From Minisyncoccota bacterium (GTDB lineage: Bacteria > Patescibacteriota > Minisyncoccia > Minisyncoccales > Minisyncoccaceae), in assembly GCA_041673285.1 (NCBI GenBank), contig JBAYXY010000001.1, forward strand, positions 1 through 27,143: 27,143 bases of DNA. Direction: 5' to 3'. Made by a program: the position numbers and the translations under genes. The notes beneath the pieces are model-generated. The model worked only from the letters and a program-made list of their open reading frames with translations, had not been told where the DNA came from and searched no databases. Positions 11,489-12,655 of the stretch are shown here, piece by piece (position 1 is the first letter of the stretch; every line of letters starts with the position of its first letter).

Positions 11489-12655
11489 ATGAAAGAAGGT
11501 GAAAATGTTAAAAAAGATTTGTTGAGCTTTTGCGAAAGAAAAGGTTTTGATATTTATAAGTCATTTTCAGTGGTTTCTCAAGAAGATGATTTGCTTTTTG
11601 TAAATGCTAGCATTACTCCTTTTAAGGATTTATTTCTTAAAGAAGAATACGTTGAAAAAAATATCGCCTTAATACAAAAATGTATTAGGATGGGGGGAAG
11701 GGCTTATTCTTTAAAAGAGATAAATGAAAGTAATTATTGCAATACTTTTTTTGAGATGCTTGGTTTAATATTTTTTAATTCAAATTATTATGAAGTTATG
11801 GCTATTTTGTTTGAATTGCTAGAATATATGAAAATTGATAAAGACAGATTCTATTTTGCCATTCCTTTTGATAACTTTTTATTTGAAAAGGTGCTTTTAG
11901 AAAATAGAATCAAAATAGATAGGATATTTAAAATAGATGGGAATAATATTTTTTGGACTAAATGGAGGTTTGGAAAAGAATCTCTTGTGGGAGAGGGAAT
12001 AACATTAATATATTCACGTGACAGTAAAGAGATGGTTAATAGTGCTGAGCAATTATTATACCAAGAAGATATTTTTATCCCTCTTTTGAATGTCATTGAT
12101 ATTAATGCGAGGGAAGAAAATGGAATAGTTAAAAAAATAAGAAATCAAGGATTTGAAATTGCAATGGGAATAGAGAGGCTTTTAGCAATTAAACAAGAGT
12201 GTAATCATTACGAGATTGATTTGATAAGGGATCAATTTAAATGTGTAGAGAATTTTTTTGAAAAAGGTTATGATCAATTTTCACAAGTTGACCTTAAAGT
12301 GATAACGGATCATTTAAGAACAATAGGAGTTCTTATTACCGAAAAAGTCATACCTTATAAGAATAAGCAAGGATATGTTTTAAGAAAGATGATAAGGACT
12401 GTAATGGAAATAGTTTTTATTAAAAGTGGAAAAATAGATATAAATGATTTATTGATTAATTTTTACAAGATTGATTACCAGGATGAGGAGATAGATAATA
12501 TCATAGAAATTATCCATGAGGAAAAGATGGTTTTCAGGAACAACATTGAGAAATTTGTTAAAAGATTTTCATCGATAAAAATGAGTGAAAAACAAATAAG
12601 AGAGACATATGGAATATCTTCTAATTTGTTAAAAAAAATAAGAGAGATGCAATAA
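11489..12655 (+). CDS. Truncated, divergent alanyl-tRNA synthetase-like protein (catalytic and helical domains only; no editing or C-Ala domain)
   Basis: LLFVNASITPFKDLFL, QKCIRMGG, NTFFEMLG, MGIERL, ITDHLR, GYVLRKMIR, ETYG. It ends at about 390 aa versus about 870 aa for full AlaRS. ATG at 11489; the tracked TTG start is 11477. Confidence 0.8.
   Translation: MKEGENVKKDLLSFCERKGFDIYKSFSVVSQEDDLLFVNASITPFKDLFLKEEYVEKNIALIQKCIRMGGRAYSLKEINESNYCNTFFEMLGLIFFNSNYYEVMAILFELLEYMKIDKDRFYFAIPFDNFLFEKVLLENRIKIDRIFKIDGNNIFWTKWRFGKESLVGEGITLIYSRDSKEMVNSAEQLLYQEDIFIPLLNVIDINAREENGIVKKIRNQGFEIAMGIERLLAIKQECNHYEIDLIRDQFKCVENFFEKGYDQFSQVDLKVITDHLRTIGVLITEKVIPYKNKQGYVLRKMIRTVMEIVFIKSGKIDINDLLINFYKIDYQDEEIDNIIEIIHEEKMVFRNNIEKFVKRFSSIKMSEKQIRETYGISSNLLKKIREMQ

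Follow-up and report, generated by a model that had tools for sequence, protein, structure and literature searches.

AcmF, from the ascamycin pathway of Streptomyces sp. 80H647, is a truncated protein resembling alanyl-tRNA synthetase (AlaRS) (primary report ACS Catal 2024, 14:3533; PMC12945691). It does not adenylate; its donor is Ala-tRNA(Ala) from the neighbouring canonical AlaRS, AcmD, and it transfers the alanine to the sulfamate nitrogen of dealanylascamycin, which occupies the place of adenosine monophosphate (AMP) (PMC12945691). AcmF carries the substitution D232E and Glu232 is essential, Gln219 stands at the position of E. coli N212, E216 is used for the acceptor, and there is no Asn-plus-Asp reader of the G:U pair (PMC12945691). 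A second enzyme of interest, AgnA ('agrocin 84 synthetase'), is proposed to join an acyl amide to AMP via a phosphoramidate bond (PMC8323819). Here we describe an AlaRS-like gene at positions 11489-12655 of a 27,143-nucleotide (nt) stretch of DNA, hereafter the window, from a Minisyncoccota bacterium (assembly GCA_041673285.1, contig JBAYXY010000001.1, positions 1-27,143, forward strand), whose genome comprises 607 kb in 95 contigs. This gene most likely leads a five-gene, horizontally acquired operon that makes an amino-acid-linked nucleotide rather than charging tRNA for translation.

To our knowledge, AcmF, reported in 2024, is the sole characterised AlaRS-derived aminoacyl transferase, and how agrocin 84 is made has yet to be worked out. 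Within the literature collection searched, we met no relevant paper pairing Patescibacteria or the candidate phyla radiation (CPR) with microcin C or agrocin, and none on the cassette described here.

The AlaRS-like protein and its residues

The gene is assigned from domain profiles, a structural model, residue alignments and a phylogenetic tree. Its features are the following:

11489-12655 (+): AlaRS-like paralogue of 388 amino acids (aa), with aminoacylation and tRNA-recognition domains (Pfam, NCBIfam, AlphaFold2 model, residues, tree)
11603-11614 (+), aa 39-42: NASI at the place of NAGM, in the family signature NA[ST][IV]TPF
aa 72-75: AYSL
aa 83-86: YCNT
12155-12178 (+), aa 223-230: motif 3, EIAMGIER (DTGMGLER in E. 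coli), with the Arg kept, Asp changed to Glu223 and Gly237 changed to Ala
12353-12364 (+), aa 289-292: PYKN at the place of PSNE, N303 changed to Lys (alignment)
12599-12613 (+), aa 371-375: RETYG at the place of YDTYG, D400 changed to Glu, T401 and G403 kept (alignment)

A first-pass annotation of the window, made from the sequence alone, had picked out these six motifs, and alignment places all of them where it had put them. The likely start is the ATG at 11489, with GGTGAT 5 nt upstream; a TTG at 11477, which would add four residues, is less likely. Pfam PF01411 (tRNA-synt_2c) matches residues 11-370 with 156.9 bits (cut-off 30.3) and covers only profile positions 2-375 of 552, and the NCBIfam alaS equivalog TIGR00344 scores 137.2 bits, below the cut-off of 457 that marks a housekeeping enzyme. 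Because the protein stops about 13 residues past RETYG, the editing and C-Ala domains are absent, as had been noted from the sequence. An AlphaFold2 model, built with 18 family members in the alignment, has a mean predicted local distance difference test score (pLDDT) of 88.8 and a predicted template-modelling score (pTM) of 0.89. Its best match in the Protein Data Bank is 3HXU, the E. coli AlaRS catalytic fragment with alanyl-sulfamoyl-adenosine (Ala-SA), at a template-modelling (TM) score of 0.78 spanning both domains, which is the kind of complex that the first-pass annotation had suggested for superposition.

That annotation had taken the gene for an AlaRS paralogue with a remodelled amino-acid pocket, and this is borne out: it is a non-housekeeping, AlaRS-derived paralogue and not the AlaRS of translation. 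A separate AlaRS lies on another contig of the same genome (G000:C8:3-1559, minus strand; locus L001); its frame is truncated by the end of that contig, and its score is 438 bits. No orthologue of the AlaRS-like gene was found in the 40 genomes of the same genus, family or order that were searched; the matches there are housekeeping AlaRS only, of about 560-650 aa and 24-31% identity, with one shorter match at a contig end. In a maximum-likelihood tree with Shimodaira-Hasegawa-like approximate likelihood ratio test (SH-aLRT) support, all housekeeping AlaRS form one clade on a long branch (support 100), and the family of the window protein and a sister subclade fall outside it. The family is small: in an exhaustive profile search of 1.84 billion cluster representatives, about 20 family clusters, and no more, outscored ordinary AlaRS.

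Residues were compared among 35 family members, 15 sister-subclade proteins and seven truncated canonical AlaRS adjoining family members (SEC). The reference set consisted of 177 housekeeping AlaRS (114 bacterial, 63 CPR-type), plus the E. coli enzyme and this genome's own. Numbering follows E. coli AlaRS counting Met1, so that R69, D235 and G237 of the literature are one lower than the numbers used here. In the crystal structure of AlaRS with ATP and alanine, the Phe of motif 2 and the Arg of motif 3 sandwich the adenine, and the Arg of motif 2 binds the alpha-phosphate; D235 holds the alpha-amino group, and V215 touches the alanine methyl group (PMC12143591).

The nucleotide-facing part of this site is kept in the family. 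R70, F91, M93, G95 and G240 are present in 35/35 members, R243 in 34/35, and W171 and N213 in 32/35 each (the window included for N213). The Arg residues of motifs 2 and 3, which the first-pass annotation had reported as kept, are R67 and R230 of the window protein. Other positions have changed throughout. G43 and M44 are each conserved in 176 of the 177 housekeeping AlaRS; the family has Thr in 22 and Ser in 12 members at the former, and Ile in 28 and Val in six at the latter. Among positions that are 97-100% conserved in housekeeping AlaRS, D77 is kept in 7/35 family members, H87 in none (Tyr, Cys or Phe instead), N169 and F216 in none, and E184 in none (Thr in 33), while T237 is replaced by Leu, Val or Ile (Ile in the window). 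V215 is Ile in 32/35 members, and E210 is Glu in 23 and Pro in 11, the clade of the window having lost it.

Position 236 is always acidic in the family (Glu in 18, Asp in 17; Glu in the window), and position 238 is Gly in 22 and Ala in 13 (Ala in the window). The amino-binding Asp and the small Gly lining the alanine pocket are thus both changed in the window protein, as had been claimed, at positions 97-100% invariant in housekeeping AlaRS; on sequence grounds the change from Asp to Glu is a conservative one, and half of the family keeps Asp. Taken together, at the ten near-invariant catalytic positions G43, M44, D77, H87, N169, E184, E210, F216, D236 and G238 the window protein has S, I, S, C, I, T, P, D, E and A. 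From this pattern, we infer a family pocket that keeps the contacts to AMP and to the amino group and has lost the ATP-activation apparatus.

The first-pass annotation had allowed that its substitutions might prove common in housekeeping CPR AlaRS. This is so for D400E but not for G43, M44, D77, H87, D236 and G238, which are 97-100% invariant in the 177 AlaRS, so these changes in the window protein are not drift typical of CPR. The contrast that it drew with E. coli HNDL and RHHT stands in part: D77 and H87, which are 97-100% invariant in the 177 enzymes, are lost, but N76, R86 and H88 are variable in CPR housekeeping AlaRS, from which GGKH is also missing, and that portion of the contrast is lineage background.

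The tRNA-recognition domain, by comparison, is not decaying, because the ratio of its mean pairwise identity to that of the catalytic domain is 0.78 for the family, against 0.77-0.78 for housekeeping AlaRS. D286, R289, P301, Y308, R311, R315, E363, T401 and G403 are kept in 28-35 of the 35 family members (Y308 in 28, with Phe in six more). In E. coli the readers of G3:U70 are N303 and D400, and both D400A and D400N cause an approximately 25-fold loss in kcat/Km (PMC6055181). The proposal that this reader had been altered in the window protein holds as to the residues, since N303K and D400E are both present, but loses most of its force in context. Position 303 is Asn in 19 and Lys in 13 family members (Asn in 60 and Lys in three CPR housekeeping AlaRS), and position 400 is Asp in 17, Glu in 11 and Ser in four. 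Among the 63 CPR housekeeping AlaRS, position 400 is D17/Q17/E15/T6/A4/S3, with Gln in this genome's own enzyme, against Asp in 107/114 housekeeping AlaRS of other bacteria. Because Glu400 is common in CPR housekeeping enzymes and N303 is kept in 19/35 of the family, the argument for a remodelled G3:U70 reader is weak. CPR AlaRS may read the G:U pair differently; the tRNA-Ala(GGC) of this genome carries a normal G3:U70.

The cassette and its genomic setting

Downstream of the AlaRS-like gene, four genes follow on the same strand:

12742-13851 (+): class IIb aminoacyl-tRNA synthetase (aaRS) catalytic-core paralogue, AgnA homologue (Pfam tRNA-synt_2, 101 bits; BLASTP)
13848-14885 (+): MccF-clade S66 serine peptidase, with Ser/Glu/His triad and adenine-stacking Trp
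14860-15630 (+): class I S-adenosylmethionine (SAM) methyltransferase-fold protein A, 256 aa (Pfam Methyltransf_31/25/11)
15636-16496 (+): class I SAM methyltransferase-fold protein B, 286 aa (Pfam), in the slot of MccD/AgnB1 homologues elsewhere

Between 12742 and 16496, neighbouring genes either overlap or are separated by 5 nt. The first of them matches AgnA of pAgK84 over its full length (30% identity over 332 aa, E 2e-46, BLASTP), and the genome encodes two further class IIb aaRS. MccF uses S118 and an adenine-stacking W186 (PMC8323819). The equivalents of S118, W186, E243 and H311 are all present in the S66 protein, as in the MccF clade; it scores 212 bits to Ba3275, 163-167 to MccF structures and 65 to LdcA, and is 32% identical both to E. 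coli MccF and to AgnC5. The gene for methyltransferase A, which overlaps the S66 gene by 26 nt, is conserved at this place in three other loci (L004, L005, L009). Methyltransferase B matches MccD weakly (25% over 114 aa, E 3.6e-6), and because the match to MccD is confined to the SAM-binding region, we do not call the window methyltransferases MccD orthologues.

To compare gene neighbourhoods, 12 family loci with usable flanks were available (the window, L003-L006, L009, L013-L016, L030 and L039). An S66 peptidase and a class I methyltransferase-fold gene adjoin the AlaRS-like gene in 12/12, and an AgnA-like class IIb aaRS-core gene is present in 9/12; the other three (L003, L015, L016) have two dCTP-deaminase-like genes in its place. 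In these three cassettes, the Trp186 position of the peptidase is Phe or Leu (L003:4832-5845, L015:2891-3970, L016:6865-7860), which hints, at the level of sequence, at a non-adenine and possibly pyrimidine nucleotide product. Methyltransferases in L003, L006, L013-L016 and L030 match MccD/AgnB1 over the full length (E 1e-20 to 1e-53). A decarboxylase of the ornithine/diaminopimelate type is present in L003 and L015, and an S-adenosylmethionine decarboxylase is inserted in L006 and L014; by analogy, an MccD/AgnB1-like methyltransferase beside a decarboxylase recalls the MccD/MccE aminopropylation module. The fullest layout is that of L039 (5626-13862), from a GC-rich groundwater bacterium, which has a major facilitator superfamily (MFS) transporter, an AgnA-like gene, an MccD-like methyltransferase, an S66 peptidase, the AlaRS-like gene and an 896-aa AlaRS. 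In its AlaRS-like protein the motif 2 loop is short, and Arg and Phe are spaced there as they are reported to be in AcmF.

An intact AlaRS lies directly downstream of the AlaRS-like gene in 7/12 loci, five of them as fragments of 429-453 aa without editing domain and two at full length. The two genes overlap by 4-11 nt in four loci (L006, L009, L014, L016). The SEC copies keep every catalytic residue and nest among CPR-type housekeeping AlaRS in the tree, and 4/5 genomes that carry them have a separate full-length AlaRS. The short extra AlaRS copies form one clade with 99% support:

L006:3885-5207: short extra AlaRS
L009:1385-2674: short extra AlaRS
L013:9089-10450: short extra AlaRS
L014:4170-5471: short extra AlaRS
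L016:9161-10453: short extra AlaRS

All five have T237A/G and M239A next to the alanine pocket; their role may be to supply charged or mischarged tRNA, or they may be inhibitor-resistant targets. The sister subclade (L017-L029), mostly from Saccharibacteria and related metagenome-assembled genomes, has N213R, E210Q and W171Q/K and lacks the S66 and methyltransferase partners. A YqcI_YcgG-family gene adjoins in 5/12 of its loci (examples are L020:7983-9107 with 9110-9760 and L026:7290-7952 with 7995-9107), and a canonical AlaRS lies within 3-5 kb in several. This subclade may belong to another pathway.

In the window, the cassette sits in an island between murE, which ends at 9483, and atpB, which starts at 17717. 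The remaining features of the island are:

9484-17716 (strand not applicable): strain-specific island of 8.2 kb, carrying the cassette
9750-10832 (+): AAA_14/DUF4143 ATPase, island cargo (Pfam; candidate defence family PDC-S01 of PADLOC, about 460 bits)
10897-11367 (+): NUDIX hydrolase, not a conserved member of the cassette (Pfam NUDIX)
11418-11446 (+): promoter-like site TTGACA-17 nt-TATGAT, 11/12 consensus positions, in the intergenic gap ahead of the AlaRS-like gene
16811-17429 (-): fragmented transposase/integrase-like open reading frames (ORFs) at the right end of the island, with integrase-core-like text by reading, not library-scored

In three genomes of the same genus (G013:C1, G006:C23, G008:C2), murE and atpB are about 300-400 nt apart; in G013:C1, for example, murE (6980-8194) is followed by atpB (8494-9189). 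The island thus comprises the DUF4143 ATPase, the NUDIX gene, the five-gene cassette and transposase-like fragments. The NUDIX protein matches the PADLOC candidate defence family PDC-S07 and is weakly similar to pAgK84 NUDIX genes; its gene is absent from the family loci L004, L005, L006 and L009. In PADLOC, the AlaRS-like, AgnA-like and S66 proteins have no match and the methyltransferases only a generic mad2 match. The three short consecutive ORFs at 16811-17429 resemble pieces of an integrase-core transposase and are, judging by their sequence, probably a decayed mobile element at the right edge. The island may pair defence-type with antibiotic-type cargo. Altogether, we consider it highly probable that the AlaRS-like gene belongs to a mobile aminoacyl-nucleotide cassette.

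The promoter-like site is a consensus match only: it is the best match in a scan of 10700-16900, in which the number of sites was not above the shuffled expectation. A dedicated tRNA gene was sought in the window and in the related cassettes, and none lies inside them; tRNAs occur only in the flanks. Among the window ORFs scanned, no ThiF/MccB and no exporter was found, and ThiF was not found in the related loci either; no MccA precursor peptide gene turned up, small peptide ORFs not having been searched.

Elsewhere in the window the genes are housekeeping ones, namely tsaE, a 5'-3' exonuclease, fpg, holA, ruvA, murE and the F-type ATP synthase operon. Two long ORFs have no Pfam match, 6397-7608 (-; 403 aa) and 23812-25335 (+; 507 aa). 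DNA that is nearly identical turns up in metagenomes from bioreactors, landfill, digesters, soil and wastewater, most of these runs being flagged as possible sources of the same DNA. In a wastewater metagenome, the S66 region (13865-14847) is also covered by contigs of higher depth with 12-14 differences; strains or cassettes that are related but carry a variant of the peptidase gene are therefore present there together. In one fermentation metatranscriptome, a single 311-nt contig of depth 2.6 is identical to 12329-12639; it marks presence in an RNA library rather than transcription and is not used as evidence.

Proposed function and its alternatives

We hypothesize, by analogy and with a probability of about 50%, that the AlaRS-like protein is an AcmF-like transferase that moves an aminoacyl group from aminoacyl-tRNA to a nucleotide-type amine. 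This reading is favoured because the AMP pocket is kept, residues attributed to activation are lost, the tRNA-recognition domain is kept, an intact AlaRS is a frequent partner and the peptidase is of MccF type. More specifically, the protein would no longer activate amino acids with ATP. The old adenylate pocket would bind an AMP-like ligand and the retained recognition domain the acceptor stem of a tRNA, the donor being Ala-tRNA(Ala) from the housekeeping AlaRS or another small aminoacyl-tRNA. The aminoacyl group would then pass to the amine of the nucleotide-type acceptor to give an N-acyl bond, so that the second step of aminoacylation would run backwards. Making and decorating the acceptor or scaffold would be the task of the co-transcribed AgnA-like class II enzyme and of the two methyltransferase-fold proteins that depend on SAM. 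MccF-type peptidases cleave aminoacyl-N-(phosphoramidoyl or sulfamoyl)-adenosine bonds, and the peptidase of the cassette, with its adenine-stacking Trp, could cleave the same type of aminoacyl-N bond for self-protection or processing. Where an intact AlaRS stands beside the AlaRS-like gene, the arrangement mirrors, by analogy, the AcmD/AcmF pair. The observations behind this proposal are the paralogy, the residue pattern, the fold, the conservation of the cassette, the homologies of its partners and the insertion of the island; the loss of adenylation, the dependence on tRNA, the nature of the acceptor and an aaRS-inhibitor-like aminoacyl-nucleotide product are what we infer from them.

Several points weigh against this proposal. 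At least seven AlaRS-invariant positions are lost in the family, but the assignment of D77, H87 and E184 to triphosphate and Mg binding comes from general knowledge of class II enzymes rather than from a cited AlaRS structure, so the proposed loss of adenylation leans on that broader knowledge; both class II Arg residues remain and are compatible with ATP use too. K303 and E400 in the window protein make a specificity for tRNA(Ala) uncertain. The family keeps Asn (32/35) where AcmF has Gln219, and the clade of the window has Pro at the equivalent of AcmF E216. The likeness to AcmF is drawn from its published description and may be convergent; in the profile searches and a residue-fingerprint scan, no retrieved protein had the AcmF fingerprint. 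Finally, the window cassette has no adjoining second AlaRS, decarboxylase, clear MccD orthologue or exporter.

A further step, which we put forward tentatively and with less confidence than the transferase itself, would make the operon a route to an aaRS poison resembling microcin C or agrocin that needs neither a peptide nor MccB. In this route the product of the AgnA-like enzyme would be an N-acyl- or amino-phosphoramidate nucleotide, and the AlaRS-like protein would load alanine from Ala-tRNA onto it, giving a non-hydrolysable mimic of alanyl-adenylate or a pro-drug capped with Ala. Masking of the phosphate would fall to the methyltransferases, and the MccF-like enzyme would protect the producer. 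If true, this would be the first pathway to an aaRS-inhibitor-type natural product in ultra-small CPR episymbionts, possibly directed against hosts or competitors. On the broader reading of the cassette, bacteria with genomes of about 0.6 Mb devote about 5 kb to horizontally acquired, specialised nucleotide chemistry, which bears on how CPR episymbionts deal with hosts and competitors. A compact operon of five or six genes would also offer a minimal system for studying how an N-acyl phosphoramidate warhead is built and the question of the aminoacyl-tRNA donor, and possibly new aaRS-targeting scaffolds and chemoenzymatic tools for aminoacyl-nucleotide analogues.

The first-pass annotation had instead suggested that the protein adenylates a substrate other than alanine and serves an acceptor other than tRNA. 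As an ATP-dependent ligase, the protein would join a non-alanine carboxylate to, for example, the AgnA-like product or an amine. Many class II paralogues work without tRNA, and aaRS paralogues of this kind include AsnA, EpmA and the amino acid:carrier-protein ligases. The invariant motif 2 and 3 Arg and adenine-stacking Phe would suit such a ligase, as would the changed pocket (V215I, T237I, G238A and D236E) and the absence of a second AlaRS from the window cassette. We nevertheless regard it as unlikely, since D77, H87, N169, E184 and F216 are lost family-wide, constraint on the tRNA-recognition domain and its motifs equals that in real AlaRS, and the intact AlaRS that adjoins in 7/12 loci is often translationally coupled. 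AcmF itself uses Ala-tRNA and does not adenylate (PMC12945691).

Somewhat less probable again is a role in immunity, as a decoy or non-catalytic scaffold whose degenerate core would sequester a toxic aminoacyl-adenylate mimic or tRNA(Ala). The retained contacts to AMP and the amino group, beside lost catalytic residues, would be expected of such a protein, and an immunity-type peptidase always adjoins. aaRS-derived immunity genes are moreover frequent in clusters for aaRS inhibitors, as with AgnB2 and, in agn-like clusters, copies of MetRS (PMC8323819). A stoichiometric decoy would, however, be costly, and it leaves the conserved tRNA-domain motifs and the coupling to an intact AlaRS unexplained. 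The intact extra AlaRS of related cassettes is a better candidate for a resistant target, and position 236 is invariantly Asp or Glu, as expected if an aminoacyl amine is still positioned.

A place in cell-wall or peptide metabolism, with the S66 protein as an ordinary LD-carboxypeptidase and the two aaRS-like enzymes extending peptidoglycan stem peptides, is very improbable. The S66 family does include LdcA, and murE lies 2 kb upstream; however, the peptidase scores 163-212 bits to the MccF clade against 65 to LdcA and has the adenine-stacking Trp, the partners are homologues of AgnA, MccD and decarboxylases, and the other family loci are not near mur genes. The proximity of murE is an artefact of the insertion of the island between murE and atpB, which in relatives follow each other directly. 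Finally, a housekeeping alpha subunit of a split AlaRS, or a divergent CPR AlaRS, would match the domain content, which is that of a minimal active AlaRS fragment, but we reject it because a second AlaRS is present in the genome, the gene was not found in the 40 relatives searched, residues invariant in the 177 AlaRS are lost and the family lies outside the housekeeping clade.

Comparison with known systems

Compared with E. coli AlaRS 1-441 (3HXU), the window protein shares the fold of both domains, the motif 2 and 3 Arg, F91, W171, N213 and the motifs of the tRNA-recognition domain. It differs in being only 23-24% identical, in having lost G43, M44, D77, H87, N169, E184, E210 and F216, in D236E and G238A, in the missing editing and C-Ala domains, and in being an accessory gene on an island.

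With the microcin C operon of E. coli (MccA-F), the cassette shares an MccF-type peptidase with catalytic triad and adenine-stacking Trp. Related cassettes add full-length MccD homologues together with a decarboxylase, consistent with the logic of aminopropylation, and L039 has an MFS exporter in the position of MccC. Unlike that operon, no MccB (ThiF) and no MccE acetyltransferase was found, and the window methyltransferases match MccD weakly.

The agrocin 84 cluster of pAgK84 (PMC8323819) is represented by homologues of AgnA and AgnC5 in the window and of AgnB1 in related cassettes, and both systems combine such genes with an aaRS-derived gene. They differ in that agn has no AlaRS-like transferase; conversely, AgnB2 LeuRS and AgnC1-C4, C6, C7, D, E, F and G have no BLASTP match in the window or the related loci.

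The ascamycin AlaRS-like proteins, named by the first-pass annotation as a comparison, proved the right lead, AcmF being the closest characterised analogue. The motif 2 loop is longer here, the hosts are CPR/Patescibacteria and other uncultured bacteria, and the partners are AgnA-, MccF- and MccD-like rather than the acm sulfamate and halogenation genes, with no AcmE-type esterase. The window cassette also lacks an AcmD-like intact AlaRS, although one is present in 7/12 family loci. What the two proteins have in common is an architecture of aminoacylation and tRNA-recognition domains only, Glu in place of the alpha-amino-binding Asp (E223 in the window protein), the missing Asn-plus-Asp pair for G3:U70, and a retained motif 2 Arg and aromatic adenine stack. 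The setting agrees as well: both genes sit in a cluster of the type that makes aminoacyl-nucleoside compounds, and in related loci an AcmD-like intact AlaRS adjoins.

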